Of a DNA stretch of 64,000 nt, positions 12,462 through 56,316 are shown piece after piece (position 1 is the first letter of the stretch; every line of letters starts with the position of its first letter). Source of the DNA: an uncultured Nitrospiraceae bacterium (GTDB lineage Bacteria; Nitrospirota; UBA9217); the NCBI GenBank assembly GCA_964447405.1, contig CAYUSP010000001.1, forward strand, positions 495,909-559,908, in the 5' to 3' direction. A program made the position numbers and the translations under genes. The notes under the pieces were generated by a model. The model worked only from the letters and a program-made list of their open reading frames with translations, was not told where the DNA came from and did not search any database.

Positions 12462-15400
12462 ATGAATATCTCTGAACTATTTATCCGCCGTCCGGTCATG
12501 ACCACCCTGGTCATGCTCTCGATCCTGTTTGTCGGTATAGCCGGGTATCGTCAATTGCCTGTAAGCGACCTTCCTAACGTTGACTTTCCCACGATCCTGG
12601 TGTCGGCAAACGTTCCGGGAGCAAGCCCGGAGACAATGGCTTCTGCCGTTGCAACACCCCTTGAAAAGCAGTTCTCGACCATTGCTGGCATTGATTCCAT
12701 GACCTCGGCAAATGCGCAGGGTCTTACGACGATCACCATACAGTTTACACTGAGTCGCAGCATTGATGCCGCTGCCCAGGATGTGCAGGCTGCCATTGCA
12801 GCAGCAGCGCGTCAATTGCCGCAGGACATGCCGAGCCCGCCATCCTACCGCAAGGTTAATCCGGCTGACTCGCCAGTGCTCTATATGGCGCTCAGTTCCC
12901 CGACGTTGCCGCTTTCAAAAGTAGATGACTTCGCCCAGACCCTGATCGCCCAGCGTGTCTCCATGGTCAGCGGCGTTGCACAAGTGCAGGTCTACGGGTC
13001 CCAGAAATATGCAGTAAGGGCGCAGCTGAATCCTCGCGCCATGGCATCACGCGGCATCGGTATAGATGAAGTGGCAACTGCGGTTGCCCGCGCGAACGTG
13101 AATCTGCCCACCGGGACGCTCTACGGCGCCAATCAAGCCTTTACCGTTCAGGCCACAGGCCAACTCAATGATGCTGAAGCCTATCGTCCGATCATCGTGG
13201 CATACCGGGGCGGTTCACCGGTCCGCCTTCAGGAGCTTGGCCGGGTTATTGACAGCGTGGAAAATGACAAGGTAGCAAGCTGGTATCGCGATACTCGCGC
13301 CATCATCCTCGCGGTCCAGCGCCAGCCGGGCACGAATACGGTTGAGGTCGTTGATTCCATCAAGAAGCTCATACCGACGTTCAAGGAGCAGATGCCGGCA
13401 TCGGTAAAACTTGATATCCTGTTTGACCGGTCCATCTCCATTCGGGATTCGGTCGAGGATGTGAAATTCACCTTGTTCCTCACCGTTTGTCTCGTTGTCA
13501 TGGTCATTTTCCTGTTCCTCAGAAACCTCTCCGCTACGGTCATTCCCAGTTTGGCGCTTCCCATGTCCATTGTGGGGACGTTTGCCGTCATGTATCTGTG
13601 CGATTACAGCCTGGACAACATGTCGCTCATGGCGCTTACTCTTTCTGTCGGATTCGTAGTTGACGACGCCATTGTGATGCTCGAAAACATAATCCGTCAT
13701 ATGGAGATGGGAGAGACGGTCATGGAAGCCGCGCTCAAGGGGTCCAAAGAGATCGGCTTTACGATCCTTTCCATGACCATCTCGCTCGTGGCTGTCTTTC
13801 TTCCCGTGTTCTTCATGCCCGGCATCATCGGCCGACTCTTGCATGAATTCGCGGTAACCATTGGCATGTCCATTCTGATATCTGGTTTTGTCGCACTCAC
13901 GCTCACGCCCATGCTCGCGAGCCGTTTTATCAGGCCCCATGGCGGTGAACAGCACGGCAAGCTGTACCATGCATCGGAACGGTTCTTTGCCAGAATGCTC
14001 GCATTTTATGAACGGACGTTGACCTTTGTGCTCAGGCATCCAAAGGCCACCATGGCCGCTTCCGGGGTCATCCTTGCGGGCACCGTTGTCCTGTTCATGA
14101 TCATGCCAACCGGATTTCTGCCCAGCGAGGATACGGGGCAGTTGTTCATCGTCACGGAGACGGCGCAGGGAACGTCGTTCGACTCCATGAAACAACACCA
14201 GCTGGCACTATCAGACATCGTCATTAAGGATCCGAACGTCGACGGCTACATGTCGAGCATTGGCGCGGGTGGTGCGAACTCTTCAGGCAATCAGGGGCGT
14301 TTTTTTATCCGTCTCAAACCGCGCTCTGAACGCGATCTGCATGTCGACCAGGTAATCCAGAAATTGCGGCCCAAGCTGTCACAGGTGCCGGGTATCATGG
14401 CATTTCCGCAAAACCCGCCGCCAATCCGCATCGGTGGTACGCTCACCAAAAGTCTCTACCAGCTCACCCTCCAGAGTCCCAATACGGATGAGCTCTACGA
14501 ATACGCCCCAAAGCTCGAGGCAAAACTCCGCAATCTATCTCAGCTCCAGGACGTAACGAGCGATCTTCAGATCAAGAATCCGCAGGTGAATGTCGAAATA
14601 GACCGCGACAGGGCGTCGGCGCTCGGCATAACAGCCACGCAGGTTGAGGGGGCTCTCCAGACTGCATACAGCCAGCAGCAGATATCGACCATTTATGCGC
14701 CGACCAATCAATACCGGGTCATCATGGAGTTGGAGCCGCTGTATCAACGTGACCCCAATTCTCTCTCCCTGCTTTACATCCGGTCGTCAGCAGGCCCCTT
14801 AGTGCCGATCAGTGCTGTCTCGAAACTTTCCCAGAGTCTGGGGCCCTTATCCGTGAATCACCTGGGCCAATTGCCAGCGGTCACCCTGTCGTTTAACACG
14901 CGGCCTGACGTGTCCCTGGGCACTGCGGTTGATGCGGTGAACAAGGCTGCCCGACAAACGCTGCCGGCATCCATTACCACGAGTTTCCAGGGGACTGCCC
15001 AGGCATTCCAGTCGTCGATGCAGGGACTGGGGATACTCCTTATCGCAGCAACCATCGTTATCTATATCGTGCTCGGTATCTTGTACGAAAGCTTCATTCA
15101 TCCGTTCACGATCCTGTCAGCGCTGCCCTTCGCCGGCTTCGGCGCGCTTGTGACGCTCATGATCTTTGGATCCGATCTGAACGTCTATGCTTTTGTGGGA
15201 ATCATCCTCCTGGTGGGCTTGGTGAAAAAGAACGGCATCATGATGGTCGACTTTGCCCTCGATGCCCAGCGCAAAGAGGCAGCAGCACCAAAGGATGCCA
15301 TCTACAAGGCCTGTATTATACGGTTCCGTCCCATTATGATGACCACCATGGCCGCACTGCTTGGTACGCTTCCCATAGCCCTTGGTTTCGGTGCTGGTGC

Positions 15401-15569
15401 AGAATCACGACGTCCTCTCGGCCTTGCTGTGGTAGGAGGTCTCCTTTTCTCGCAAACATTAACCCTTTACGTTACCCCTGTTGTGTATCTGTATATGGAT
15501 CGGCTCCAAAGGAAGCTTGACCGATTGAAGATATTCCAGATACGGAAAAAAGTGATATCAATCGAGTAA
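12462..15569 (+). CDS. RND multidrug efflux transporter permease (AcrB/HAE1 family)
   Basis: 1035 aa, 12-TM architecture, with the conserved GFVVDDAIVMLENI motif. Confidence 0.9.
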   Translation: MNISELFIRRPVMTTLVMLSILFVGIAGYRQLPVSDLPNVDFPTILVSANVPGASPETMASAVATPLEKQFSTIAGIDSMTSANAQGLTTITIQFTLSRSIDAAAQDVQAAIAAAARQLPQDMPSPPSYRKVNPADSPVLYMALSSPTLPLSKVDDFAQTLIAQRVSMVSGVAQVQVYGSQKYAVRAQLNPRAMASRGIGIDEVATAVARANVNLPTGTLYGANQAFTVQATGQLNDAEAYRPIIVAYRGGSPVRLQELGRVIDSVENDKVASWYRDTRAIILAVQRQPGTNTVEVVDSIKKLIPTFKEQMPASVKLDILFDRSISIRDSVEDVKFTLFLTVCLVVMVIFLFLRNLSATVIPSLALPMSIVGTFAVMYLCDYSLDNMSLMALTLSVGFVVDDAIVMLENIIRHMEMGETVMEAALKGSKEIGFTILSMTISLVAVFLPVFFMPGIIGRLLHEFAVTIGMSILISGFVALTLTPMLASRFIRPHGGEQHGKLYHASERFFARMLAFYERTLTFVLRHPKATMAASGVILAGTVVLFMIMPTGFLPSEDTGQLFIVTETAQGTSFDSMKQHQLALSDIVIKDPNVDGYMSSIGAGGANSSGNQGRFFIRLKPRSERDLHVDQVIQKLRPKLSQVPGIMAFPQNPPPIRIGGTLTKSLYQLTLQSPNTDELYEYAPKLEAKLRNLSQLQDVTSDLQIKNPQVNVEIDRDRASALGITATQVEGALQTAYSQQQISTIYAPTNQYRVIMELEPLYQRDPNSLSLLYIRSSAGPLVPISAVSKLSQSLGPLSVNHLGQLPAVTLSFNTRPDVSLGTAVDAVNKAARQTLPASITTSFQGTAQAFQSSMQGLGILLIAATIVIYIVLGILYESFIHPFTILSALPFAGFGALVTLMIFGSDLNVYAFVGIILLVGLVKKNGIMMVDFALDAQRKEAAAPKDAIYKACIIRFRPIMMTTMAALLGTLPIALGFGAGAESRRPLGLAVVGGLLFSQTLTLYVTPVVYLYMDRLQRKLDRLKIFQIRKKVISIE

Positions 15570-15629
15570 TTGGCGGCGTGGCAATCATCAAAGAAGAATG
15601 ATGCTCCCATGCAGTGTTAAGGAGAAACG

Positions 15630-16832
15630 GTGATGCGTTCCGGCAGAGACAAATGCAGCGTGGTACAACGGAAACCGAGGACGGCACAGCGTGTGATCAA
15701 GGTACTCATCCTGGCAATGGTGCTGTTCAGTTGCAAAGGCGATGGCCCCGCATTCAGGACCGAGCCAATAACGCGCGGCGATGTTCAGCAGACCGTAACC
15801 GCAACAGGAACGGTCAATGCCGTGACCACGGTACTGGTCGGCACGCAGGTTTCGGGCACGATCAAGAGTCTCTTCGTGGATTTTAATTCACGCGTCACAA
15901 AAGGTCAGCTCATTGCTTTAATCGATCCTGAGATGTTTGAGGCGCAGGTTGCCCAGGCAAAGGCGAACGTGGAAAAAGCCGAAGCGACCTTCCGTGACGC
16001 GGACCGGTCGATCACCAGAAACCGGGAATTGTTCTCAAGAAACCTTGTTCCCCGAAGCGATCTCGATACCGCTGAGACGAACTTTGACAGCGCCAAGGCG
16101 CAGGTGGAGCAGGCAAAGGCGGCTCTCAGGGTGGCGGACACGAATCTCCGCTATACGCGCATCCTGTCGCCGGTGGACGGCGTCGTCATCTCCCGGAACG
16201 TGGACATCGGCCAGACCGTTGCAGCCAGTTTTCAGACCCCGACCCTGTTTACGATCGCGCAGGATCTGACCAAGATGCAGCTCAACACGAATATCGCCGA
16301 GTCGGACATCGGCATCGTCAAGGTTGGGCAGGATGTCGAGTTCACGGTCGATGCTTATCCTGATACGATATTCAAGGGAAAGGTCTGGCAAAAGCGGCAG
16401 GCCCCGATCACGGTGCAGAACGTTGTGACCTACGATGTCGTCATCAAGGTCGACAACAGCGACCTGCGTTTGATGCCGGGTATGACCGCCAATGTCTCGA
16501 TCATCATAACTATACGGAACAACGTGCTCAGGATATCGAATACCGCACTGCGATTTAAAATGATTGACAAGCCGGCCGGAGCTTCAGGTGGTAATACCGG
16601 TTCCACCGGCGAGGCAAACAAACGCGGAGGCCCGAGCGCTGAAAAAAAGGGTCCGGCCGTATGGGTCCTTGAAGACGGAAAACCGAAGCGCATGGCCATA
16701 GAATCGGGCATTAGTGACGGAAATTATACCGAGGTCGTATCCGGCGACCTGAAAGAGGGGAACCAGGTCATTATCGAATCCTTAAAGAAGAACAAACCTC
16801 AACAGGCGCCGTCAGGTCCGAGGATGTTCTAA
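15630..16832 (+). CDS. MacA-like periplasmic adaptor (HlyD/MFP family)
   Basis: It has a TM anchor or signal, coiled-coil and beta-barrel regions, and directly precedes the MacB-type ABC genes. Confidence 0.8.
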   Translation: MMRSGRDKCSVVQRKPRTAQRVIKVLILAMVLFSCKGDGPAFRTEPITRGDVQQTVTATGTVNAVTTVLVGTQVSGTIKSLFVDFNSRVTKGQLIALIDPEMFEAQVAQAKANVEKAEATFRDADRSITRNRELFSRNLVPRSDLDTAETNFDSAKAQVEQAKAALRVADTNLRYTRILSPVDGVVISRNVDIGQTVAASFQTPTLFTIAQDLTKMQLNTNIAESDIGIVKVGQDVEFTVDAYPDTIFKGKVWQKRQAPITVQNVVTYDVVIKVDNSDLRLMPGMTANVSIIITIRNNVLRISNTALRFKMIDKPAGASGGNTGSTGEANKRGGPSAEKKGPAVWVLEDGKPKRMAIESGISDGNYTEVVSGDLKEGNQVIIESLKKNKPQQAPSGPRMF

Positions 16833-16833
16833 G

Positions 16834-17526
16834 ATGACGCTCATTGAAGCACGGAACCTAAGTAAGGTCTATAGTCTTGGTGATGTGGACGTGCGCGCAT
16901 TGGACGGAATCTCCACGACCATCGATAAAGGCGAGTTCGTCGCGATCATGGGGCAGTCCGGTTCGGGCAAGTCGACCTTCATGAACATGCTTGGCTGCCT
17001 GGATACGCCCACGGGCGGTCACTATCTCCTTGACGGTGTTGATACCAGCGGCCTGTCGCGTGACGATCTGGCGGAGATACGGAACAAGAAACTCGGTTTC
17101 GTGTTTCAGGGTTTTAATCTCCTGTCGCGCACGTCAGCCGTGGAGAACGTGGAGCTGCCTCTGCTGTACGATGGTTCGCCCGCGAAGGAGCGAAGGGTGC
17201 GGGCGCGGGCCGCTCTCAAGAGCGTCGGACTCGAGGGGAGGGAGGGGCATCATCCCAACCAGCTTTCCGGCGGTCAGCAGCAGCGCGTTGCCATCGCACG
17301 CGCGCTGGTGAACGATGCGCCCATCATCCTAGCCGATGAACCAACGGGGAACCTCGACACGAAGACCAGTGTCGAAATCATGGAACTACTCGTTAAGCTC
17401 AATCGCGATTCGAACATAACGGTCATCCTGGTGACCCATGAATCGGATATAGCGTCTTTCAGCAAGAGGATCATCCGGTTCTCGGACGGCCGCATCGTCA
17501 GCGATAAACCGGTAAACAAACCATGA
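16834..17526 (+). CDS. ABC transporter ATP-binding protein (MacB/LolD family)
   Basis: GQSGSGKST, LSGGQQQRVAIARAL and [11 protein letters not shown] are present. Confidence 0.9.
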   Translation: MTLIEARNLSKVYSLGDVDVRALDGISTTIDKGEFVAIMGQSGSGKSTFMNMLGCLDTPTGGHYLLDGVDTSGLSRDDLAEIRNKKLGFVFQGFNLLSRTSAVENVELPLLYDGSPAKERRVRARAALKSVGLEGREGHHPNQLSGGQQQRVAIARALVNDAPIILADEPTGNLDTKTSVEIMELLVKLNRDSNITVILVTHESDIASFSKRIIRFSDGRIVSDKPVNKP

Positions 17527-18752
17527 TCAATATTCCATCCACCTTCAAGATATCCTTCCGCGCACTGCGGGTGAACAAGATGCGTTCCGCCCTTACCATG
17601 CTCGGCATCATCATCGGCGTCGGCGCCGTGATCGCCATGGTCGCCGTGGGTACGGGAGCAAGCCAGAAGATCGCCGAGCAGATCTCCAGCATGGGCAGCA
17701 ACCTGCTGATTATTCTTCCCGGTGCAACGACCGCTGGTGGCGTTCGCATGGGCGCAGGAACGCAGCCTACGCTCAGCATGGGCGATGCAGAAGCGATCAT
17801 CCGGGAATGCCCTGCGGTATCGGATGCGGCTCCTATCCACAACGGTGTTGCACAGGTGGTCTTTGGCCATATGAACTGGTCAACGGGAGTCATCGGCACG
17901 ACCCCGTCCCTGCTTATCGTTCGGGAATGGGACCTTACGGCAGGAAGGTCGTTCACTACACAGGACGTAAAAAGTGCTACGAAAGTAGCCATGCTCGGAC
18001 AGACCGTGGTGGACAATCTATTTGGGGAACAAAATCCCGTGGGACAATCGATCAGGATCAAGAACGTCCCTTTCACCGTGATCGGTGTTCTCGGGAAAAA
18101 AGGGCAGAATGCCCAGGGTCAGGACCAGGATGATACGATCATGATACCGGTGACCACGGCGCAGAAGAAGCTCTTCGGGACCCAGTTCCCGGGCATGGTG
18201 CGGATCATCACCGTCAAAGCCAGGAGCGCCGAAGATCTTGCCGGGGCTGAACGTCAGATCAATGAACTTCTCCGGCAGCGGCACCGGATCGGCCCAAAAC
18301 AGGACAATGACTTCACGGTCAGGAACCTCACGCAGATCATGCAGGCTGCGGAGGCGTCAACGAAAGTGATGACCATGCTGCTTGGGGCCATCGCTTCGGT
18401 CTCGCTCCTCGTCGGCGGGATCGGCATTATGAACATCATGCTCGTGTCGGTCACCGAACGTACCCGCGAGATCGGGATCCGCATGGCCATCGGCGCCAAG
18501 ACGTGGGACATCCGGCTCCAGTTCATAATTGAAGCGCTCACCTTGTCGCTGATCGGGGGGGTCGTCGGCATCATTATCGGAGTATCCGCATCCATCGTCC
18601 TTTCCTCGATCTCGGGCTGGCCAACCGTAGTATCAGGTCTCTCGATTGTTCTGGCTTTTGGTTTCTCCGGCTTCATCGGAATCTTTTTCGGTTTCTACCC
18701 CGCGTACAAAGCCTCGCTCCTGAATCCGATCGACGCACTCAGATATGAATAG
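17523..18752 (+). CDS. ABC transporter permease, FtsX/MacB family
   Basis: An N-terminal TM helix, a large periplasmic domain, then 3 C-terminal TM helices with the ERTREIGIRMAIGA motif. Confidence 0.85.
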   Translation: MINIPSTFKISFRALRVNKMRSALTMLGIIIGVGAVIAMVAVGTGASQKIAEQISSMGSNLLIILPGATTAGGVRMGAGTQPTLSMGDAEAIIRECPAVSDAAPIHNGVAQVVFGHMNWSTGVIGTTPSLLIVREWDLTAGRSFTTQDVKSATKVAMLGQTVVDNLFGEQNPVGQSIRIKNVPFTVIGVLGKKGQNAQGQDQDDTIMIPVTTAQKKLFGTQFPGMVRIITVKARSAEDLAGAERQINELLRQRHRIGPKQDNDFTVRNLTQIMQAAEASTKVMTMLLGAIASVSLLVGGIGIMNIMLVSVTERTREIGIRMAIGAKTWDIRLQFIIEALTLSLIGGVVGIIIGVSASIVLSSISGWPTVVSGLSIVLAFGFSGFIGIFFGFYPAYKASLLNPIDALRYE

Positions 18753-18801
18753 TCATTGCTTGACATCAGTGCTTCGCTGGTTTATTCTGCGTACCATCAT
18801 G

Positions 18802-20055
18802 ATCAAGGCTCTGTTCATCTCATTTTGCATTCTTGCGGGGACGTCGCTCCCTGCCTACAGTGCCTCAACCATACAGGTGGTGTCTGCTGATGAAGGCACG
18901 TTCGTCATCCAGGGGGTCGACCTTGATGGCGCAGCAGCATTCGATCTTACCCTGACCTATGATACGACTGCGCTTGCCAATCCCCAGGTAACACAGGGAG
19001 AGCTGGTTGCGGGCGCCATGATGGCCGTAAACCCGAACATTGCGGGGACGATCCGGATGGCGCTCATCCGCACAACGCCAGTCACAGGCACTGGGCTGAT
19101 AGCGACCATCCGGTTTGAAAGAAGAAATAATTCACCGGGCAAATTATTTACCTTCCAGGCAAAACTCGCAAATATCAATGGGAAGTCGATCCCGGTTGTA
19201 ACCCGTGTCATCAATCCTTCTGAAAACACGCCAGGCACCCAACACCAAGAACAAAACATTCATCAAGGAAGCACGACTTCTTCGGGAACTCCCGTTGTTC
19301 AGCCGCTGGCGCCCCCAGGTTTCCTGACCAGTGTCACGGTACCCGCTCCATCACCTGATCAGAAGGAAAAGACCCCTTCTGCTGAACGTGCGGCTGACGT
19401 TCCGCGCGATTCACCTGAAGTATCCGGGGATGTGAAAACTGCGCTTCAAAAAAAGAACGATGCTCTTTCAGCACATGATCAGGAAAAGAAGATCTATACT
19501 CAGGACAGCGTGCTGGAACGATTCCGGTCATTCCTGGGGGAAAAGAGCATCCATTCTTATACCGGCCTGTTCGATCTTGAATCACTGATTGGATTCAGAC
19601 AGGACCCGGGCATTGCCTTGTCCGACGGGAAAACAGCGGTCAGGGTGACCTTTTTGTCCCTGTCAACGGTGCACGCAGCGCCTGATGTCGCGTTAATAAG
19701 CGCACGTCTGGTCTCCCTGAATAAAGATGCGGATAACTCGAACACCTGGATCGCAGAGATTATTCCGGACCGCGGCACTCCAGCAGCCAACCTTGCCGTG
19801 GCACAGGGGACAATGAACATGGTTTACCCCCTTACGGTGGCGCCTAAGATTAACATCGATCTCGATGGGTCAGGCATGGTCAATGAAGCGGATTTTACCC
19901 TTTTTCTCGGGGATCGGGGCACACTAGCCAAGCCTCTATTCGATCTGAACAAAGACGGGAAAAGGGATCAGCTTGACGACTATATTTTCACCGCGAACTT
20001 CCTTGCCTCCACTGCAAAGCAGCTGACGCAGGAAAAGTCCAAGAAGGTCCAGTAG
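18802..20055 (+). CDS. Secreted protein with an N-terminal cohesin-like domain and a C-terminal type-I dockerin (two Ca-binding F-hand repeats)
   Basis: Signal peptide MIKALFISFCILAGTSLPAYSAS. The beta-rich N-terminal domain fits a cohesin pattern. The dockerin repeats are DLDGSGMVNEAD and DLNKDGKRDQLD. An alternative start at 18745 would overlap the upstream stop. Confidence 0.55.
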   Translation: MKALFISFCILAGTSLPAYSASTIQVVSADEGTFVIQGVDLDGAAAFDLTLTYDTTALANPQVTQGELVAGAMMAVNPNIAGTIRMALIRTTPVTGTGLIATIRFERRNNSPGKLFTFQAKLANINGKSIPVVTRVINPSENTPGTQHQEQNIHQGSTTSSGTPVVQPLAPPGFLTSVTVPAPSPDQKEKTPSAERAADVPRDSPEVSGDVKTALQKKNDALSAHDQEKKIYTQDSVLERFRSFLGEKSIHSYTGLFDLESLIGFRQDPGIALSDGKTAVRVTFLSLSTVHAAPDVALISARLVSLNKDADNSNTWIAEIIPDRGTPAANLAVAQGTMNMVYPLTVAPKINIDLDGSGMVNEADFTLFLGDRGTLAKPLFDLNKDGKRDQLDDYIFTANFLASTAKQLTQEKSKKVQ

Positions 20056-20155
20056 CTTCCATGGTTTGACAGTCCTATCGGTCAGAAAACCTTGGCAACG
20101 AATCAATCAACCTACTGATTCTCGTTCTCGACAAAACCCCTGAAATACTCTAATA

Positions 20156-22621
20156 TTGTTCATGCCCATGGACGATGTCATAACCACCCTGCAGCGCATC
20201 CGGCAGCCTCTCGCTTTCGCCAGCCGGGATAATTTTGCCCGTCTTGGCAGTCTCGCGGATATGGAGCGCTTTATCCAGGCTCAGCTGCCGGAACTCAAGG
20301 GTGCGCAGGTTGATCAGCAGTTGCTCCATGAGCTCGAACGGCTTTTCCAGAATTTTGATACTGCTACCCTGGATGTGAAAAAGGAGCGTCTTCTTCTTGT
20401 TGAAATGGTTCTGCGGTCTATTGAAGATTCCAGGTCACCGTTTCCCCCGCAGCAGAAAGCAGCATTGAAAACACCCAAACCAACACGAATTGCAGAGCCT
20501 GATCCTGTCTCGCCCGTGGTTAAACTGGATTCTCCCATTCAATACTGCAAGGGAATCGGCCCTAAACGGGCTGAAATGCTCGGCAAACTCGGCATCTCCA
20601 CGTTCGAAGATGCGCTTCTGTTTCTTCCCTGGAGGTATGAAGACAGGGGCAATCTAAAAAAGATCGGAAGAGTTACTTACGGTTCCTATGAGACGGTAAC
20701 GGGCGAGGTGGTTTCCGCGGAGGTGGTCCAGACAAAGCGGCAGCGGGTAAAAATATTCGAGTTGATCATAAACGATCGGAGCGGGATGCTCGTAGGGTCC
20801 TGGTTCAACCAGCCCTTTATGAAAAAAATGTTCAAACAAGGCCAGAAACTCGTGCTTTCGGGTGTGGTAAAATCGAATCCCTACCGCGGCGGCCTGCCGC
20901 AAATGGATAATCCGGACTACGAGATCCTGGATGATGATGAATCGGAAAATCTAATCCACGCGGGAAGGACCGTACCGATCTATCGAGCCACTGCAGGTTT
21001 GTCGGTGCGAGCCATACGTTCGATGATGAAAAATATCATAGACTCGATCGCGGGCACGGTCCAGGAGTCGTTGCCCGATGACATCGTGACCCGCTATTCG
21101 CTTATGGCGCCAGGAGAGGCCCTGTCTGAAGCGCATTTTCCTGCAGCAGAAAAGGACATCACCGTTCTGAACCGCGGTGTGAGTGCAGCTCATCGGCGAT
21201 TATGCTTTGAGGAGCTTTTCACGCTTGAACTCGGCCTTGCGCTCAGGAAACAGGGTGTGTCCGAGAAAAAAAAGGGGATCTCGTTCAAACCCGTCGGCAC
21301 TCTGGAAACGGCTCTCCGGAAGGGGCTTTCCTTCAGTCTGACCGAGGCGCAGGAGCGGGTCATCGGGGAGATCAAAAAGGACATGATGGCCGATCGTCCC
21401 ATGAACCGTCTTGTGCAGGGCGATGTGGGCTGCGGAAAGACCGTTGTTGCCATGGTGGCAATGGCGAATGCCGTGGAGAGCGGTTATCAGACGTGCGTCA
21501 TGGCACCCACGGAGATCCTGGCGGACCAGCACTTCAGGAATATTGAAGCCATGGCGAAGCGGATCGGTATAAGCGTGAGATCCCTTACCGGAGGACGGAA
21601 AAAAAAGGAGAAGCAGCAAATCCTCGCTGATATCGCATCTGGGGAAGCACACGTCATCATAGGGACCCATGCGCTCATCGAGGAGGATGTTCTGTTCAAA
21701 CGACTTGGCCTTGCGGTGATCGACGAACAGCACCGCTTCGGCGTATTGCAGCGCTCTATGCTCACGTCCAAGGGATACGAGCCTGACGTGCTTGTGATGA
21801 CGGCAACACCCATACCAAGAACGCTGGCGCTCACGGTCTACGGCGACCTCGATGTCTCGGTGATAGATCAGCTGCCGCCAGGAAGGAGCCCGATCTCGAC
21901 CAGGTTGTATTTCGAGCCGCGGCGTCTGGAGGCTTATGGGTTCATGGAAGGTGAAATGAAGAAGGGGCGGCAGATCTATATTGTTTATCCTCTTGTTGAA
22001 GAGACCGAAAAGAGCGATCTCAGGGCTGCCACTGAAATGGCGGCGCACCTGCAGAGCGGGGTATTCCCCGGCTGGAAGATCGGTTTGCTGCACGGGAGGA
22101 TGAAGGGGGATGAGAAGGGACGCATCATGGAGGCTTTCAAGTCCGGCGATCTGCACGCTCTTGTATCAACCACTGTGATCGAGGTTGGCGTGGACGTACC
22201 CAACGCCACGGTTATGGTGATAGAGCATCCCGAGCGCTTCGGGCTGGCACAGCTCCACCAGCTTCGGGGAAGGGTCGGGCGTGGCGCACATCAATCCTAT
22301 TGCATCCTGATGGGCCCCCGGATGTTCGCAGAGGACGCGCGGGAGCGTCTGAATGCCTTTGCGAGAACGAATGACGGGTTCAAAATAGCCGAGGAGGACC
22401 TGAGGCTCCGGGGTCCGGGCGAGTTCTTCGGCACGCGCCAGTCAGGCCTGCCGGACCTGCGCGCTGCGAACATCATTCGTGACGCAGATCTTCTTGAACA
22501 GGCCCGAATGGAAGCGTTTGGCCTGGTGCAGCAGGACCCGGGACTGCTGCGCCATCCGCGGCTGGCAGAACTGGTGCGGAGGAAATGGAAAGGAAGGTTC
22601 GGGCTGCTATCTGTTGGTTGA
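20156..22621 (+). CDS. recG: ATP-dependent DNA helicase RecG, with an N-terminal extension of about 120 aa
   Basis: Wedge/OB region, DExH helicase motifs (GDVGCGKT, DEQH), and the RecG C-terminal domain. Confidence 0.9.
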   Translation: MFMPMDDVITTLQRIRQPLAFASRDNFARLGSLADMERFIQAQLPELKGAQVDQQLLHELERLFQNFDTATLDVKKERLLLVEMVLRSIEDSRSPFPPQQKAALKTPKPTRIAEPDPVSPVVKLDSPIQYCKGIGPKRAEMLGKLGISTFEDALLFLPWRYEDRGNLKKIGRVTYGSYETVTGEVVSAEVVQTKRQRVKIFELIINDRSGMLVGSWFNQPFMKKMFKQGQKLVLSGVVKSNPYRGGLPQMDNPDYEILDDDESENLIHAGRTVPIYRATAGLSVRAIRSMMKNIIDSIAGTVQESLPDDIVTRYSLMAPGEALSEAHFPAAEKDITVLNRGVSAAHRRLCFEELFTLELGLALRKQGVSEKKKGISFKPVGTLETALRKGLSFSLTEAQERVIGEIKKDMMADRPMNRLVQGDVGCGKTVVAMVAMANAVESGYQTCVMAPTEILADQHFRNIEAMAKRIGISVRSLTGGRKKKEKQQILADIASGEAHVIIGTHALIEEDVLFKRLGLAVIDEQHRFGVLQRSMLTSKGYEPDVLVMTATPIPRTLALTVYGDLDVSVIDQLPPGRSPISTRLYFEPRRLEAYGFMEGEMKKGRQIYIVYPLVEETEKSDLRAATEMAAHLQSGVFPGWKIGLLHGRMKGDEKGRIMEAFKSGDLHALVSTTVIEVGVDVPNATVMVIEHPERFGLAQLHQLRGRVGRGAHQSYCILMGPRMFAEDARERLNAFARTNDGFKIAEEDLRLRGPGEFFGTRQSGLPDLRAANIIRDADLLEQARMEAFGLVQQDPGLLRHPRLAELVRRKWKGRFGLLSVG

Positions 22622-22678
22622 TATTTGCAGGGTATTCTGATACAGTAAAAAAAACGACAGGTTCTTCGGGGAGTTACG

Positions 22679-23047
22679 ATGACGATCTGGGAAAAAGTTA
22701 TTCTGAATATACGGCGCGGTTCGCAGCGGGTCGCCATTGCTGCAGCGCTTGTGGCGGAGCGGGCGCGGGCCGAGCTTACTATCGTGCGGCTGCGGATCAG
22801 GCACGATGAGGTCAATGCCACGATCAATGAATTGTACCAGGGAATCGGACGCAGGGTCAAAAGCCTCGCAACAAGCGGAACCATGCCTAAAACATGTGAG
22901 CTACTTCTGCAGGATGAGGAAATTACATCCGCATTTGCCGAGTTGATCGAGCGGGAGAAGGAGATCGAGGAGCTGAACAACGAGATCAGGAGCGTTCAGG
23001 TGACGATCAAGACAGCGCCGAAACAGCGGGCGGAAGGCAGCGCATGA
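22679..23047 (+). CDS. Hypothetical coiled-coil protein translationally coupled to pilD
   Basis: 122 aa, predicted helical. It overlaps the pilD start by 4 nt (ATGA). Confidence 0.5.
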   Translation: MTIWEKVILNIRRGSQRVAIAAALVAERARAELTIVRLRIRHDEVNATINELYQGIGRRVKSLATSGTMPKTCELLLQDEEITSAFAELIEREKEIEELNNEIRSVQVTIKTAPKQRAEGSA

Positions 23048-23871
23048 TCACTGCCGTGGTTTTTATTTTCGGTCTTATCGTGGGCAGTTTTTTGAACGTT
23101 TGTATCGCGCGGATCCCTCTTGGACGTTCCATTGCGACCCCGCCGTCCCACTGTCCGCAGTGCAGCAAAGGGATCCGGTTTTATGACAACATCCCTCTGC
23201 TCAGTTATCTTCTGCTCCGGGGCAGGTGCCGACACTGCGGCCTGCCGATTTCCTTCAGATATCCGCTCGTCGAGCTCATGAATGGCCTCCTCTATGTCTG
23301 GATCGAGCATGAGTTCTGGCTTGGCGGCGAAACACTGCTCATCATGCTGTTGTGTTCGGCATTGATCGTAATCACTTTCATTGATTATGACCATCAGATC
23401 ATCCCCGATGTCATCAGCCTGCCGGGGATGCTGATAGGGATCGTGATCGCTCCGTTCTTCCTGATGGCGCTGGCGGAGCCGCTTCCGTTCCCGATCGATC
23501 GCATGATGCCTCTCGCAGGACCGTACCTGACAGCGCTCACGAACTCATTGCTCGGAGTGCTGTGCGGCGGCGTCCCGCTATTTGCCATCGGGTGGATTTG
23601 GGAAAAGTTACGTCATGTGGAGGCAATGGGCGGCGGTGATATAAAACTGATGGGAATGGTCGGAAGCTTTCTGGGCTGGAAGGGCGCACTGCTCACCATC
23701 ATGATCGGCTCACTAGCCGGGTCACTGGTCGGTGTTCTTCTGATCCTGCTCAAAAAGCATGAGATGGGCAAGGTTATGCCGTTCGGTCCCTATCTGGCAT
23801 TTGGCGCCGTGCTCAGTGCTTTCTATGCCTCAGATATCATTTCGTGGTACCTTGGATTCATCCGGCTATGA
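23044..23871 (+). CDS. pilD: Prepilin peptidase / N-methyltransferase (A24 family)
   Basis: The N-terminal tetra-Cys motif is CPQC…CRHC. It is polytopic with the conserved LMNGLLYVW… pattern. Confidence 0.85.
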   Translation: MITAVVFIFGLIVGSFLNVCIARIPLGRSIATPPSHCPQCSKGIRFYDNIPLLSYLLLRGRCRHCGLPISFRYPLVELMNGLLYVWIEHEFWLGGETLLIMLLCSALIVITFIDYDHQIIPDVISLPGMLIGIVIAPFFLMALAEPLPFPIDRMMPLAGPYLTALTNSLLGVLCGGVPLFAIGWIWEKLRHVEAMGGGDIKLMGMVGSFLGWKGALLTIMIGSLAGSLVGVLLILLKKHEMGKVMPFGPYLAFGAVLSAFYASDIISWYLGFIRL

Positions 23872-25139
23872 CATCGCAAATCGTGCTCATACTCTTGCTG
23901 GGCGTGCTGATCATACTGGCGGGCGCCGCTGTATTCTGGGGCATCACTCGCAGATATCGCCGCGAGCTGGGAATGCAGAGCGAAGTGCGGGACAAGACCT
24001 CTGAAACCTCTTTCATTATTAATGCCTTTCAGGATGTCACGAAACAACTGAAGGAAAAGGAAAAGGAACTTGAACGGCTTAAAGCAATTGCTGAGCAGCG
24101 TGCGGAGACGATCGAGAGCTATCACGAAAACATCCTCCAGTGCGTTACGAGCGGGGTGATGACATTTGATGCCGCCTGCCGCCTGACCACCTTTAACCGC
24201 TCCGCCGAGGAACTGCTCGGTCTGAAACAGGGAAGCGCGGACAGGGTGGACTGCGTTACCCTGTTCGGTGACAACGAAATCACGAGAGCGGTGCATACGA
24301 CGCTCGACACAGGGACGCCCTCTGCACGCATGGAGGCAATGATAACGAGACAGGATGGCAGAATATGGCTGGGTTTCAATACCGCGATCCTTGCTGATAG
24401 AAAAGGCTCCGCGCTTGGTGTTATTCTGTCATTTTCAGACCTCACTGAAGTGAAGCGTTTGCAGGAACAGGTGGAATTGCGCGAGCGGCTCTCGGCGCTT
24501 GGCGAGATGTCCGCCGGCATCGCACACGAATTGCGGAATCCCATGGCTGTCATGAGCGGCTATCTCAGCCTGCTGTCGAAGAAGGCTAGCAGCGAGCATC
24601 AGAAAATCATTCAGAGCATCACCAGCGAGATCACCGGGATGAACCGCATCATCGGCGAGCTCCTCGCCTTCGCGAGGCCCGCTTCGCTCAACCGGGTAAA
24701 GGTTTCCCTGAAAGAAATGGTTGAAGGATGTGTAGTTCAAGCTCTGCAGGCCGCTGGGGCGGGAAAAACCGTGAAGACCGAAATCAGTCTGGTTGACGGT
24801 GATATAGCCGCTGACGAGATGCTGATCAGGCAGGCTGTCACGAACTTGTTCCAGAATGCCATTGAGGCAATGTCGGAAGAGGGGACGCTGACGGTGTCCT
24901 TGCGGCGTAGTGCAGAGGATGTCATTCTTGAAGTCAAGGACACGGGGCAGGGTATAGCGCCCGGCAATATTAAAAAAATATTCATGCCATTTTTTACGAC
25001 GAAGGACAACGGCATCGGTATGGGGCTCGCACTGACGCACAAGATCGTAACGTCCCATGGCGGGCGGATCGAAGTGGAGAGCGAGCCTGGCAGAGGGACG
25101 ACGTTCCGCGTTTCGCTTCCGCGAGGTAACTGTTCATGA
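23868..25139 (+). CDS. Sensor histidine kinase (PAS + HisKA + HATPase), PilS/NtrB-like by context
   Basis: One TM helix, a PAS domain, H-box AHELRNPM, N/G boxes. ATGA overlaps the pilD stop. Confidence 0.8.
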   Translation: MTSQIVLILLLGVLIILAGAAVFWGITRRYRRELGMQSEVRDKTSETSFIINAFQDVTKQLKEKEKELERLKAIAEQRAETIESYHENILQCVTSGVMTFDAACRLTTFNRSAEELLGLKQGSADRVDCVTLFGDNEITRAVHTTLDTGTPSARMEAMITRQDGRIWLGFNTAILADRKGSALGVILSFSDLTEVKRLQEQVELRERLSALGEMSAGIAHELRNPMAVMSGYLSLLSKKASSEHQKIIQSITSEITGMNRIIGELLAFARPASLNRVKVSLKEMVEGCVVQALQAAGAGKTVKTEISLVDGDIAADEMLIRQAVTNLFQNAIEAMSEEGTLTVSLRRSAEDVILEVKDTGQGIAPGNIKKIFMPFFTTKDNGIGMGLALTHKIVTSHGGRIEVESEPGRGTTFRVSLPRGNCS

Positions 25140-26521
25140 CGGATACCATCCTCGTGATAGAGGACAAAGAAAGCATGCTGGAAATGCTTACGCAGACCCT
25201 CGAAGGGGTCGGATACCGGGTTATCCCCGCACGGGACGGCGCGGACGGAATTAAAAAATTAGCCGACGAGCGCATCGGCATGGTGCTCACAGACCTGAAG
25301 CTTCCCAAGAAGGACGGATTCGATGTATTGAAAGCGGTGAAGCAGGACTATCCTCTGCTGCCGATCATCGTGATGACGGCGTTCGGTACCATTGAGACAG
25401 CCGTGCGGGCAGTGAAGGAAGGAGCATATGATTTTCTGACCAAACCTTTCGACACCGACCATCTCCTCGTACTCATCAACCGGGCGCTCGCCGCATCCCG
25501 ATTGGCTGCGGAGAATATTCTGCTCCGTGAGGAATTCGCCGAGAAGCTCGGGCTGCCCAAGATCATCGGCAAGAGCGTCCAGATGCAGGAGATCACGGCG
25601 AAGATCCAGAAAGTGGCTCCCACGAACGCGACCGTGATGATCCACGGGGAAAGCGGCACGGGAAAGGAACTCTTCGCGCGCGCCATCCATTATCTGAGTC
25701 AGAGAAAGCAGTCGCCATTCGTCGCGATCAATTCCGCCGCCATACCCCGCGAATTGCTGGAGAGCGAACTGTTCGGATATGAGAAGGGGGCTTTCACCGG
25801 TGCTGACGCCCGCAAGCTGGGGAAGCTTGAACTCGCTGACAAGGGTACGGTCTTTCTCGATGAGATCGGCGACATGGATATGGCGCTCCAGGCCAAGATG
25901 CTTCGCGTGCTCCAGGAGCAGGTGATCGAGCGGATTGGGGGCGGGAAGCCGATCAAAATAGACGTGCGGATCGTTGCTGCTACGAACAAGGATCTTGAAA
26001 AAGCGGTGGACGAAAAGCTGTTTCGTGAGGACCTGTTCTATCGATTGAATGTGTTTCCCCTCACCATCCCGCCCCTGCGCGAACGCAGGGATGACATTTC
26101 CGGGCTGGCGCAGCACTTCCTGATCAAATTCTGCGCAGAGGTCCGAAAGGGTCCGCTGTCAATCTCGGAAGAAGCCATGGAGATTCTTCTCAAATCACGC
26201 TGGAAAGGCAACGTGCGCGAGCTGGAAAACGTAATTGAGCGCGCGGTAATCTATGCCGAAGGCGGGACAATCCGCGCACGGGATCTCGGCATCAGCGAGG
26301 CAAGCATCATGGATGCGCTTGCCGAGCATGCACCGACGGAAGGACCGCTGCAGGATATCGCCGCGGCAGCGGTGCGTATTGTCGAATCGCGCAGGATCAA
26401 ACAGGTGCTTAAACAAACTGGCGGCAACAAGTCGAGGGCCGCGGAGATATTGCAGGTGAGCTACAAGACGCTTCTCACAAAGATAAAGGATTACCGGCTG
26501 GAAGAGAAGGGCGGGGAATAG
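25136..26521 (+). CDS. Sigma54-dependent response regulator (REC + AAA+ + Fis HTH), PilR/NtrC family
   Basis: REC domain with D in GMVLTDLKLP, GESGTGKE Walker A, the GAFTGA sigma54-contact motif, and a C-terminal HTH. Confidence 0.9.
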   Translation: MTDTILVIEDKESMLEMLTQTLEGVGYRVIPARDGADGIKKLADERIGMVLTDLKLPKKDGFDVLKAVKQDYPLLPIIVMTAFGTIETAVRAVKEGAYDFLTKPFDTDHLLVLINRALAASRLAAENILLREEFAEKLGLPKIIGKSVQMQEITAKIQKVAPTNATVMIHGESGTGKELFARAIHYLSQRKQSPFVAINSAAIPRELLESELFGYEKGAFTGADARKLGKLELADKGTVFLDEIGDMDMALQAKMLRVLQEQVIERIGGGKPIKIDVRIVAATNKDLEKAVDEKLFREDLFYRLNVFPLTIPPLRERRDDISGLAQHFLIKFCAEVRKGPLSISEEAMEILLKSRWKGNVRELENVIERAVIYAEGGTIRARDLGISEASIMDALAEHAPTEGPLQDIAAAAVRIVESRRIKQVLKQTGGNKSRAAEILQVSYKTLLTKIKDYRLEEKGGE

Positions 26522-34159: not shown

Positions 34160-35308
34160 ATGATGAGAAAATTTGCATTGATCGCAGTAGTGATTATTGT
34201 AGTCTGCTTCACTTATTTGAGCTTTACCGCGGTTGACACCAGGACGCAGACTGCTGTTGCATCCGGCAATACCTACAGCGGAACCGTGTATGTTGCAGGG
34301 ATGGGCGGCCACTTTGCCAAGGCTGATGTAACAATTGACCCTAGCAATGCGAACGAGCCGGTGAAGGTGAACAGCCTTGATAAGGTTGATATCGGTGACA
34401 AAAAGACGCATCCGACCCATGATGCACGCATAGATTCCAATGATCCTAACATATTGTTCTGGTCAACGTATGTTCTTGACCCGAACAACAAGCAGCATGT
34501 AGGCAAGACCGATCTCAAAACCGGCAAAGTGATCAAGGACGTCGCAATGAGCCCGGATGCAAGCGCTCCCGGCACGAAGCCCCCGATCTATTGCGCTTCC
34601 GGCCAGAGCAAAAACTTTTATATGCCCGTGTTTATGGGCATGGAAGGTTACATTGATGTGTTTGATAAAGCCACACTTACCCATAAGGAAAGGGCATGGG
34701 TCAGTGATCTTGGCTACGAAAAAGGAACCTACAAGTTCACGCACGGTATCAACTCTCCGGACATGAAGACCTTCCTCGTGGTTCTGAACCAGGCCAAGGA
34801 CGGCAAAGGCAACGGCAACATTGATTTCATTCTTGTGGATATGGCATCGCTGGAAAAAGGGAAACTGAAGAAAATCGCAAAGGCCACCTTGAAGGGCGAG
34901 CCGGATAAGACTATCACCTTCCGCCAGTATTTCTCCAATGATGGCACCAAGATATTCCAGTCAGCGGGCGACCGCCTCTGGGTACTTGATGCAAAGACCC
35001 TTGCTCTTATCGACGAGAAGATGCTGCCAGCAGGAAACCAGATCCATGATGCACAGCCGACCGCTGATGACAAGTTCGCGCTCCTGACCGTACGCACGGT
35101 CACGGCGGGCTGCGATGCGGATGGCAAGGCGATCGTAAAAGAAGGCAAGGGCGTTGACATCACCGATGGCACGTTTATGCTGTATGATATTACCGCGAAG
35201 ACGCTGAACGACAAATCCACCTCGACCTGCCTGGCCTGCCACAAGAACATGGGGCTTGGCGACAAGAACGCAGTCCTCTGCGGTCTTGACACCAACTGGA
35301 AGAAGTAG
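34160..35308 (+). CDS. Periplasmic/secreted beta-rich (propeller-like) protein with a C-terminal monohaem CxxCH motif (CLACHKNM)
   Basis: It has a signal anchor, one CxxCH about 25 aa from the C-terminus, and a GGGGAGGAA Shine-Dalgarno sequence. It belongs to no family I can name. Confidence 0.6.
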   Translation: MMRKFALIAVVIIVVCFTYLSFTAVDTRTQTAVASGNTYSGTVYVAGMGGHFAKADVTIDPSNANEPVKVNSLDKVDIGDKKTHPTHDARIDSNDPNILFWSTYVLDPNNKQHVGKTDLKTGKVIKDVAMSPDASAPGTKPPIYCASGQSKNFYMPVFMGMEGYIDVFDKATLTHKERAWVSDLGYEKGTYKFTHGINSPDMKTFLVVLNQAKDGKGNGNIDFILVDMASLEKGKLKKIAKATLKGEPDKTITFRQYFSNDGTKIFQSAGDRLWVLDAKTLALIDEKMLPAGNQIHDAQPTADDKFALLTVRTVTAGCDADGKAIVKEGKGVDITDGTFMLYDITAKTLNDKSTSTCLACHKNMGLGDKNAVLCGLDTNWKK

Positions 35309-35336
35309 TAATCTGAAATCAAAGAATGAACTAACA

Positions 35337-35375
35337 AACCTTCTCTGCGGGGCTTCCCGTGGAGAAGGTTTTTTT
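35337..35375 (+). terminator. Rho-independent terminator after the 34160 gene
   Basis: aaccttctc…gagaaggtt stem followed by ttttt. Confidence 0.65.
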
Positions 35376-35392
35376 ATGCTATTATAATAATC

Positions 35393-36589
35393 ATGGCTGA
35401 TCAATTTACCCTTTCTTCAATGGCAATCAGGAATTTGCGCAGACGTCCTCTGCGCACGGGCATACTGATCGCTGCCCTGTCCCTGATGGTGGCGGCGCTC
35501 GTATTTGCCCTTTCGTTCGTTTTGCGGGTAAATGCCAGCATTCAGCTGACCTCAGACCGTCTCGGCGCCGACCTCCTTATTGTGCCGACAGGCGCGCGGG
35601 GAGCAGCTGAGGATATCCTGGTCGAGAACCGCGCCACTTCGTTTTACATGAACAAGTCCTTCCTGGACCGGATCGGGAAGGTAAAGGGCATTGAAAAGGT
35701 TTCCGCGCAAACCTATCTTGTCACCTTGACGGGTTTGTGCTGTTCTGTTCCTTCATCCATGGTGGTTGCCTTTGATCAGGATACCGACTTTATCGTGACC
35801 CCATGGCTCAAGAACAAACTGGGGAGAAAACTCAAGAAAGGCGAGGCAGTCGTTGGCAGCGAGTCTGCTTACAACATCAGCCTGGGGCTTGTGGATGTGG
35901 AAGGCATGCTGTTCGGCAGCGTGTTCAAAATGGTTGGCGTACTCGACAAAACAGGGTCAGGGCTGGACACTGCTGTGTTCGTCAGCGACGAAAATATCCG
36001 TGAACTCATCGATAACAGCAAAGCGGACATCAAGCCCGATCAGATTTCGGTGATCTTTGCGAAAATCGGCAAGGGTGTGGACGCTTACAAGGTCATGTCG
36101 GATATAGAAGGCACGATGATCGAAGTTGATGTCGTCATGCGCAAAGACATCGGCAAAAGCCTGCTCACCACGCTGGAAGATATCAGAAAAATCTTCTACC
36201 TCACCATGGCGCTCGCGACTCTGCTTTCCCTGTTTCTTGTCTGGGCTATTTTTACCGCCATCGCGAATGAACGGACCCGTGAAGTGGGCATCATGCGAGC
36301 GCTCGGAGCAAAGGAAAGGCATGTGGTAAGCCTCTTTCTGTTCGAGGTCCTGGTGCTGGGAGCGATCGGGAGTATCGTGGGGATTCTTGCCGGAACATCG
36401 CTGACGTTCTTGATGGCTAAGAGCTTCTCGATACTGAAAAACCTTCCGGTTGACCTGAGTCTGACAGCTCGCATCGTCATTTCCCTGTCCGGTCTGCTCT
36501 TTGGTACTGGTATCTGCGTCCTGGGAGCTCTTTCCCCGGTACAAAGACTTAAGAAACTGGAGCCGTTGCTAGTTCTCAAACAGGAGTGA
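35393..36589 (+). CDS. ABC transporter permease, FtsX/MacB/LolCE family
   Basis: One N-terminal TM helix, a large periplasmic domain, then 3 C-terminal TM helices with ANERTREVGIMRALGA. Confidence 0.85.
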   Translation: MADQFTLSSMAIRNLRRRPLRTGILIAALSLMVAALVFALSFVLRVNASIQLTSDRLGADLLIVPTGARGAAEDILVENRATSFYMNKSFLDRIGKVKGIEKVSAQTYLVTLTGLCCSVPSSMVVAFDQDTDFIVTPWLKNKLGRKLKKGEAVVGSESAYNISLGLVDVEGMLFGSVFKMVGVLDKTGSGLDTAVFVSDENIRELIDNSKADIKPDQISVIFAKIGKGVDAYKVMSDIEGTMIEVDVVMRKDIGKSLLTTLEDIRKIFYLTMALATLLSLFLVWAIFTAIANERTREVGIMRALGAKERHVVSLFLFEVLVLGAIGSIVGILAGTSLTFLMAKSFSILKNLPVDLSLTARIVISLSGLLFGTGICVLGALSPVQRLKKLEPLLVLKQE

Positions 36590-36592
36590 TAC

Positions 36593-37273
36593 GTGTCCCG
36601 TATAGCACTGAACGCTGTGACCAAAACCTATAGTGTCGGAGACCAAATCATCCGCGCGGTCAGTGATGTGACCCTGGAGATCAATAAGGGTGATTTTATC
36701 TCCATTGTCGGGCATTCTGGTTCTGGAAAAACGACGCTGCTCTCCATGATCGGAGGCATCACCAGCCCGTCGTCTGGATCGATATTGTTTGATGGCGTGG
36801 ACCTCTCCGCGCTCGGGAGCGACCAGCTTTCCGAATACCGCAGCCGCAAGATAGGCTTCATGTTCCAGTTTGCCAGCCTGCTTCCCATGCTGACAGTCCA
36901 GGAAAATCTTATGCTTCCAACGGCATTCACGGAACAGCCCGAGTTGCTGGAAAAGGCAGGGGAAAAGGCGGCTGAACTCCTGAAACTGGTTGGCCTGGCT
37001 GATAAGATCGGCCACTTCCCCCCTCAACTCTCCGGCGGCCAGCAGCGGCGCGTGGCCATAGCTCGCGCATTCATCAATGATCCCGTTATAATTCTGGCGG
37101 ATGAGCCGACCGGCGATCTGGATGAGGATACGGAAATGGACATGATGAATTTTATAAAGACCATGAACAATGCATATCAGACAACGTTCATCATGGTCAC
37201 TCATAATACCGATCTCGCAAAAAAGGCGCAGCGCAGGCTTCGGATGACGCAGGGTCTGCTTCAGGAACAGTAA
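36593..37273 (+). CDS. ABC transporter ATP-binding protein (LolD/MacB-like)
   Basis: [24 protein letters not shown] and [11 protein letters not shown] are present. Confidence 0.9.
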
Positions 37274-45873: not shown

Positions 45874-46002
45874 TAACAACATTGTAGATAAAGCGGTTTT
45901 TTGCCGCACAGAATGCTCTACACCAACCAGCAGCATCCCTGAGAAATGTATTATCGATCGCAGCATAGGCACTTCACAAAACATTGCAAGGGAGGGGGCA
46001 AT

Positions 46003-47250: not shown

Positions 47251-47303
47251 AGAAAGTACTTATTTTGCGATACAGGCCATAATGCCAGAAGGAGGAACAG
47301 ATC

Positions 47304-50165: not shown

Positions 50166-50193
50166 ATTGTAAATTATCTGCGAAGATCCGATA

Positions 50194-50221
50194 ACGGCGG
50201 CCTTTATGGCCGCCGTTTTAT
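50194..50221 (+). terminator. Rho-independent terminator
   Basis: aacggcggcc-ttta-tggccgccgtt followed by tta tt. Confidence 0.7.
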
Positions 50222-50311
50222 TGATTAGCCGTTTTTGACCTTGCATTTTAGTGGATTTTAGACTATCTTTTAAACCTTAAAAGATGCTTTTTTCTCGAAG
50301 AGGGGGCAATA

Positions 50312-56299: not shown

Positions 56300-56316
56300 C
56301 CGTAATTCGGACTCAG

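Follow-up and report, generated by a model that had tools for sequence, protein, structure and literature searches.

A cohesin protein with a dockerin-like tail from an uncultured Nitrospiraceae bacterium: a candidate single-cohesin adaptor

Cohesins and dockerins are well documented outside cellulolytic organisms, in bacteria as well as archaea, and so are single proteins carrying both modules (Peer et al. 2009, as summarised in PMC9012536; PMC10553843; PMC4611034). Here we describe a gene of this kind, the longest open reading frame (ORF) at positions 18745-20055 (+ strand, 436 aa) in a 64,000-nucleotide stretch of contig CAYUSP010000001.1 (hereafter, the window), from an uncultured Nitrospiraceae bacterium. 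The original prediction, the coordinates of which were exact, was that of a secreted protein combining a cohesin-like domain with a canonical type-I dockerin in a non-cellulolytic anaerobe, and translationally coupled to a MacAB-type exporter. The same ORF is called by gene finders on three public assemblies, and no cellulolytic genes were found in the window, in agreement with the non-cellulolytic setting. We found that the N-terminal domain is a true cohesin, and we lean towards the view that the protein would act as a single-cohesin adaptor or anchor in the cell envelope.

The best structural match of the N-terminal domain is the Archaeoglobus fulgidus cohesin of Protein Data Bank (PDB) entry 2xdh, which likewise comes from a non-cellulolytic anaerobe without a multi-cohesin scaffoldin and whose parent protein also carries a dockerin in the same chain. 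The two differ in that they share only 19% sequence identity, in that the source of 2xdh is archaeal as compared with a bacterial diderm here, and in that the C-terminal module of the present protein is sub-threshold for a dockerin and is fused to an immunoglobulin (Ig)-like domain. A layout of cohesin, flexible linker, Ig-like module and C-terminal two-loop Ca module is shared with the cellulosomal adaptor scaffoldins that end in an X-module-dockerin (type II/III; for example C. thermocellum CipA and A. cellulolyticus ScaA). The Ig-like module is here modelled as packed on the tail, but the C-terminal unit was not found to be homologous to the X-module or dockerin of those scaffoldins. In R. 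bromii, Amy4 combines a cohesin and a dockerin in one polypeptide with self-recognition, and the cohesin of Sca2 serves to anchor dockerin-tagged proteins in general, peptidases among them, at the surface (PMC4611034). They differ from the present protein in being Firmicutes proteins with canonical dockerins, catalytic modules and experimentally shown binding. The cohesin/dockerin 'adhesins' of anaerobic methanotrophic (ANME) archaea and their sulfate-reducing partners also belong to non-cellulolytic anaerobes and lie beside putative surface proteins, and a role in surface display or cell-cell contact has been proposed for them (PMC9012536, PMC10553843). They come, however, from other lineages and have other architectures, with up to five cohesins.

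The cohesin module and the C-terminal unit

The cohesin module, a beta-sandwich, covers residues ~41-160 of the long ORF (18865..19224, + strand). Pfam PF00963 matched residues 54-138 with 27.6-27.8 bits, above the curated cut-off of 24.1 (E 3.7e-6), and the match was the same when the shorter start at ATG 18799, discussed below, was used. An AlphaFold2 model of the protein, built with 77 family sequences, showed a mean predicted local distance difference test score (pLDDT) of 83.6, with values of 90-97 over residues 41-160. When this model was compared with the PDB using Foldseek, all of the 50 matches listed were cohesins, 49 of them at probability 1.00, and the best was the non-cellulosomal cohesin 2xdh (E 3.9e-10, TM 0.71 normalised to the target). 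Cohesin was matched by 51 of the 89 family members. The N-terminal domain is thus a true cohesin by sequence and fold, which bears out the cohesin-like domain first proposed. An NCBIfam search of the protein gave no meaningful match, and a whole-protein sequence search of the PDB returned only matches with E > 1.

The original prediction overlooked what lies between the two proposed modules. A linker of about 85 residues, rich in P/T/S/Q, occupies residues ~161-247 (19225..19485, + strand); its composition and its pLDDT, below 50 at residues 181-244, mark it as disordered, and among homologues its length and sequence vary, the alignment columns being gappy and unconserved. It is followed by a conserved Ig-like beta-sandwich domain of ~120 residues (residues ~248-366; 19486..19842, + strand), with the motifs SVLERF..Y.GE, Q.P..ALSDGK, NTW and PLTVAP, for which Pfam gave no family. 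When residues 240-436 were modelled alone with 89 sequences, the Ig-like sandwich was obtained with a pLDDT of 93.7. In this model the Ig-like domain and the Ca-loop tail form one rigid unit (predicted TM score, pTM, 0.89), the tail helices being packed on the Ig-like domain.

The tail (residues ~367-422; 19843..20010, + strand) is predicted from Pfam, profile and model to be a dockerin-like or EF-hand-like Ca-binding segment. It holds two 12-residue loops, DLDGSGMVNEAD at residues 372-383 (19858-19893) and DLNKDGKRDQLD at residues 400-411 (19942-19977), both with Asp/Asn/Ser at positions 1, 3, 5, 9 and 12; in the model, a helix follows each of them. When the six-frame ORFs of the window (100 aa or longer) were scanned with an EF-loop pattern, only these two loops matched, so that they are not due to chance. 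The protein has the two-segment loop-helix layout of dockerins, but among the family members conservation is confined to the second segment. Loop 2 with its helix (DLNxDGKRDYxDDYIFTANYL) is nearly invariant across the family, and loop 1 is kept in a subset of members only and is lost in a whole sub-family of short paralogues.

The protein family, its gene contexts and a candidate adaptor role

By a word-indexed search, 112 relatives were obtained, of which the nearest that is not identical shares 44% identity; few of them carry a name, and this is either 'cohesin domain-containing protein' or 'hypothetical protein'. When a profile of the Ig-plus-tail unit was run with HMMER, 689 cluster representatives (50% identity clusters) were matched. 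They fall into two length classes, one of about 410-450 aa in which a cohesin is present and one of about 220-370 aa in which it is lacking, and the unit was C-terminal in most of the matches listed. The organisms, where named, were almost all Nitrospirota and Geobacteraceae or related Desulfuromonadales. A scan of a collection of species-representative genomes yielded 57 loci, nearly all from metagenome-assembled genomes of Nitrospirota and from Geobacteraceae or related Desulfuromonadales, with two paralogues in several genomes. Gene order and sequence identity of the neighbouring genes likewise place the source of the window among uncultured Nitrospirota.

Mainly in Nitrospirota, one to three genes for large secreted proteins lie just upstream of the homologue, and these neighbours end in a two-segment dockerin-like module, GDLNGDG..DALKALRIAAG ... 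GDVAPLVNG.P.PDGKI..DV..LL. The proteins so tagged include an M6 peptidase with BACON domains at locus L001, two di-haem peroxidases at L003, giant Ig/cadherin adhesins at L005, L038 and L062, and an S8 subtilase and a multicopper oxidase at L009 and L012, the last with 29.8 bits for Dockerin_1 and thus above the cut-off of that family. A conserved small lipoprotein gene sits between the dockerin-tagged neighbour genes and the cohesin gene in Nitrospirota relatives (L001 9285-9971, L005 9443-9967, L038 2176-2718, L062 9415-9990 and L063 9325-9858). Its product has the lipobox SACGGGGG and a beta-rich domain of about 150 aa with no Pfam match, and it is not encoded in the window. Of 50 scanned loci, 9 have a lipoprotein gene as the next gene upstream of the cohesin gene, and so do L062 and L063. 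The possibility that the upstream lipoproteins are hidden cohesins was examined with hhalign and not accepted: cluster C24 gave a probability of 58% over 45 columns against the family cohesin, and in the comparison of the C7 with the C24 lipoproteins only the lipobox region was matched.

At about 11 loci of Geobacteraceae, the homologue is situated downstream of a gene for a secretin with a C-terminal cohesin, which is recognised by the family's own cohesin profile with E down to 6e-8. The order is PilO-like, secretin, two pseudopilins, FtsE, FtsX, M23 peptidase, S41 peptidase, an optional Big_1 lipoprotein and the cohesin gene. This type II secretion-like secretin, composed of TPR, Secretin_N, Secretin and the C-terminal cohesin, is encoded at L061 671-3115 (Geotalea sp. 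SG265), and the same type (the C9 genes) is found at L014, L023, L031, L039, L046 and L057. Classical secretins have a pilotin-binding S-domain at the C-terminus. Judged by gene content, the genes around this secretin seem to make up the Geobacteraceae Pul type II system. That system is described as necessary for the multicopper oxidase OmpB to be secreted and as located near cell-division and DNA-metabolism genes (PMC3543383). At about 9 further Geobacteraceae loci a family member, often of the short form with the Ig-like domain and tail and no cohesin, lies beside an OmpB-like multicopper oxidase gene.

Such OmpB-like oxidases, of 1160-1745 aa, lie beside paralogues at L041, L042, L043, L044, L047, L049, L050, L052 and L054. 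Near these genes are a Sco1-type copper chaperone-like and an FKBP-type isomerase-like gene, both recognised by eye from the sequence, and a cytochrome c/periplasmic-binding protein gene. Other recurrent Geobacteraceae neighbours, namely SpoIID, QueA, Tgt, SecDF, RecJ, a CDF transporter, a ParA-like protein and a YibQ-like deacetylase, were considered as partners and set aside as housekeeping synteny. Literature searches found no paper on the Ig-plus-tail cohesin family or on cohesin-bearing secretins. The family is uncharacterised, and, as far as these searches show, the picture of an Ig-plus-Ca-loop unit with short paralogues and with links to dockerin-tagged redox enzymes or peptidases and to a cohesin-bearing secretin has not been described.

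Taken together, the real cohesin, the long linker, the rigid C-terminal unit and the repeated dockerin-tagged neighbours in relatives suggest that the protein is the monovalent adaptor or anchor in a cohesin-dockerin system of the non-cellulosomal kind, a function that we consider moderately probable. The product is a Sec-exported modular protein of about 40 kDa consisting of a signal peptide, the cohesin, a flexible linker, the Ig-like domain and the two-loop Ca-binding helical tail. Its cohesin would capture dockerin-tagged exported proteins, and attachment to another component of the envelope would be provided by the rigid Ig-plus-Ca-loop unit. The window copy is best read as an orphan, from which the upstream dockerin-tagged enzyme gene and the lipoprotein gene of some relatives are missing.

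A broader hypothesis, which we hold as speculative and rather doubtful in its entirety, is that the family serves as the adaptor of a cellulosome-like display system in diderm anaerobes (Nitrospirota and Geobacteraceae), in which the cohesin takes dockerin-tagged exoproteins and the tail plugs into an outer-membrane anchor. The cargo would be peptidases, peroxidases, multicopper oxidases and giant adhesins, and two candidates for the anchor are the lipoprotein encoded just upstream and the C-terminal cohesin of the Pul-type secretin. In this way, secreted redox enzymes such as OmpB would be retained on the cell surface beside their secretion portal.

The dockerin question and alternative functions

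Several observations weigh against the adaptor function. Pfam Dockerin_1 (PF00404) gave 12.5 bits with the whole protein and 16.0 bits with the C-terminal half, as compared with a cut-off of 22.9, and at E <= 0.1 it matched only 6 of the 89 family members. When the family profile of the tail was compared with PDB sequences, a Bacteroides cellulosolvens dockerin was found with E 0.001 and two further dockerins with 0.06-0.13, and the Entamoeba EF-hand protein 1jfj with E 0.01. By these comparisons, the tail is about as close to EF-hands as to dockerins, in both cases weakly. Since it is below the Pfam dockerin cut-off and as near to EF-hands as to dockerins, the tail may bind no cohesin at all. 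It is nearly invariant across two phyla, whereas the recognition surfaces of cellulosomal dockerins evolve fast, and this constancy may instead reflect intramolecular packing. As to gene context, dockerin-tagged neighbours were seen at only about 8 of ~53 loci, in a heterogeneous setting, and the upstream lipoprotein gene at only about 12 of ~53. No dockerin, cohesin or secretin partner was found within the window; when the family profiles (cohesin, Ig-like and tail) and the Ca-loop and dockerin patterns were run against all six-frame ORFs of the window, they matched the ORF itself only. Finally, in a diderm cell a Sec signal alone leads no further than the periplasm.

The same tests bear on the name given to the tail. 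In an hhalign comparison of the tail with the two-segment dockerins encoded beside relatives, only one Ca loop was aligned, with a probability of 13%. The two 12-residue Ca-type loops on which the assignment of a canonical type-I dockerin had been based are indeed present, but the Dockerin_1 scores, the hhalign result and the conservation of loop 2 alone do not support the assignment itself. As the tail was sub-threshold in every dockerin test and mostly only loop 2 survives in relatives, the designation 'type I' is unfounded, and the tail is better described, on the similarity available, as dockerin-like.

This has consequences for the possibility that the protein forms a self-assembling matrix, in which the cohesin of one molecule would bind the dockerin-like tail of the next to give head-to-tail chains or a surface lattice. 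Both modules do occur in one polypeptide, separated by the flexible linker, no partner is encoded within the window, and there is a precedent in R. bromii, where the cohesin of Amy4 binds the dockerin of Amy4 itself (PMC4611034); the best structural match, 2xdh, is from A. fulgidus, an organism with cohesin- and dockerin-bearing proteins (PMC6394049). However, the tail is not demonstrably a dockerin, and the dockerin-like modules of a different type on the neighbours of relatives are more obvious ligands of the cohesin. Furthermore, a large sub-family has the Ig-plus-tail unit without any cohesin, so that the tail must function independently of the family's cohesin. We therefore regard self-assembly as quite improbable.

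The near-equal standing of the EF-hand protein 1jfj and the dockerins against the tail profile is what would be expected if the tail were a Ca-dependent structural clasp for the Ig-like domain and not a docking module. The protein would then be a cohesin-fold/Ig-fold adhesin or envelope protein that binds a non-dockerin ligand, for example a polysaccharide, a mineral or peptidoglycan. The rigid packing of the tail on the Ig-like domain (pTM 0.89), the near-invariance of the helix DDYIFTANYL across phyla, and the position of the Geobacteraceae gene in a cell-envelope cluster, between ftsEX-envC-ctp and a YibQ-type deacetylase gene, are consistent with this explanation. We nevertheless consider it unlikely, as the cohesin clearly belongs by sequence and fold to the dockerin-binding family and dockerin-tagged proteins are repeatedly encoded just upstream in relatives.

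Gene start, the MacAB-type exporter and the remaining genes of the window

Translation of the gene probably starts not at the first ATG of the longest ORF (18745..20055, + strand), but at ATG 18799, 46 nt past the macB stop codon, giving a probable coding sequence of 418 aa at 18799..20055 (+ strand) whose product begins MIKALFISFCILAGTSLPAYSA|STIQ; the first 18 codons of the longer frame would then be untranslated. This choice is based on the N-termini of homologues, on the closest syntenic relative, L055, and on a promoter-like site. The 18-codon extension from ATG 18745 has no counterpart among the aligned homologues, whose signal peptides are mostly about 22-35 aa long. In L055, a gap of 155 nt separates the end of macB at 9896 from the start of the homologue at 10052, and the homologue has its own GAGGG ribosome-binding site and a 22-residue signal peptide. 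The promoter-like site is a sigma-70-like match at 18760..18788 (+ strand; TTGACA, a 17-nt spacer and TATTCT, with 10 of 12 consensus positions). It is a consensus match only, the best one within 15400-20400, and the gene may have a promoter of its own. As the match stops 10 nt before ATG 18799, the mRNA would be nearly leaderless. Elsewhere in the window, no Shine-Dalgarno sequence precedes the genes for a TetR regulator (9223) and an FtsX-type permease (35393), and -10-like boxes (TACAAT, TATAAT) are located a few bases before their ATG codons. These two gene starts suggest leaderless or near-leaderless transcripts in this organism.

A signal sequence is present from either start, in keeping with the secretion originally proposed, and ATG 18799 gives a textbook 22-residue one. 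This predicted Sec-type signal peptide (residues 19-40 of the long ORF; 18799..18864, + strand) was delimited by hydropathy, with a maximum at residues 18-25, and by the homologue alignment, which places the mature N-terminus at STIQV. It consists of the regions MIK, ALFISFCILAG and TSLPAYS/A, with a small residue at -1, as judged by inspection; a lipobox of the form [LVI][ASTVI][GAS]C is absent. An Rfam scan of the window at gathering thresholds gave no RNA family, and the ORF region has a single weak two-copy direct repeat that is probably due to chance.

The genes immediately upstream (15630..18752, + strand) encode, by Pfam, a MacAB-type exporter made up of a membrane-fusion protein (MFP; 15630-16832), an ABC ATPase (16834-17526) and a MacB_PCD/FtsX permease (17523-18752), all on the + strand, and are themselves preceded in the window by a TetR, OEP, MFP and RND efflux set. 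Their make-up resembles that of the MacAB-TolC-type tripartite exporters; the cohesin protein, however, has no homology to any pump component. The longest ORF overlaps the permease stop codon by 8 nt, from which co-expression with the exporter had been predicted. The overlap is real, but it exists for ATG 18745 only, and co-expression is not supported in view of the start at 18799, the gap in L055 and the lack of conserved adjacency. Direct adjacency to macAB was seen in the window and L055 only, and is thus not a conserved, co-oriented arrangement. In L001, whose RND pump is 86% identical to that of the window, about 4 kb with the M6 peptidase gene and the lipoprotein gene separate macB from the homologue. 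In L062 the three-gene block is inverted, so that the MacAB/RND cluster is convergent with it and on the opposite strand, and in L063 the MacAB genes are absent. The other 55 loci of the genome collection had no match to a MacB-type permease or MacA in the fetched flanks, and some had an unrelated ABC ATPase only.

These data make it very improbable that the protein is a functional partner or cargo of the MacAB-type exporter, co-translated through an ATGA-type overlap at 18745-18752. Apart from the 8-nt overlap, such a partnership would be consistent with the lack of a convincing terminator between macB and the cohesin gene, with the same gene order without insertion in L055, and with the adjacency of the MacAB/RND cluster in L001 and L062 as well. 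Against this stand the 155-nt gap and separate ribosome-binding site in L055, the two inserted genes in L001, the opposite strand of the pump in L062, the absence of a MacB-type permease or MacA match at the other 55 loci, the unmatched 18-codon extension and the promoter-like site before ATG 18799. Known MacAB substrates, moreover, are small molecules and small peptides and not folded 40-kDa proteins. The adjacency is positional and looks accidental, the gene apparently not being a partner of the exporter, and the abutment to macB is, from the comparison of these loci, best explained by loss of the two upstream genes.

On its other side, the cohesin gene lies beside RecG in the window and in close relatives, followed in the window by a prepilin peptidase and a PilS/PilR-like two-component pair (20156-26521). 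At four loci of Geobacteraceae (L016, L017, L020 and L051), RecG is again found, some 1.6 kb upstream of the homologue, and this neighbourhood recurs across two phyla. A second pair of MacB/FtsX-type permease (35393-36589) and ABC ATPase (36593-37273) genes is located in the region 34160-37273, preceded by a gene for a 382-aa exported protein with a C-terminal CxxCH and no Pfam match. An envelope-gene cluster at 45946-59184 encodes two FadL/Toluene_X-like outer-membrane channels (45946-47250 and 50312-51592), two large lipoproteins with no Pfam match (47304-50165 and 54317-56299) and two M6 (immune inhibitor A) peptidases (51704-54100 and 57046-59184). The C-termini of the large secreted proteins of the window, and of its M6 peptidases, carry not a dockerin but an anchor made of a conserved motif and a transmembrane segment; in the M6 peptidases, the motif includes DPHV..LR.FRD and is followed by a transmembrane helix. 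The M6 peptidase of L001, the gene for which adjoins the cohesin gene, has the C-terminal dockerin-like module instead.

For the window, these results mean that the cohesin is real, that the proposed type-I dockerin is dockerin-like only, and that the link to the efflux pump is positional and probably not functional. Non-cellulosomal cohesin-dockerin pairs have long been catalogued, but what they do is seldom understood, above all in Gram-negative cells. If the single-cohesin adaptor function that we favour is true, it would provide a concrete, testable model of how secreted enzymes are retained on the surface of Nitrospirota and of relatives of Geobacter. In Geobacter, this model would cover the OmpB-type oxidases that are linked to the reduction of metal oxides.

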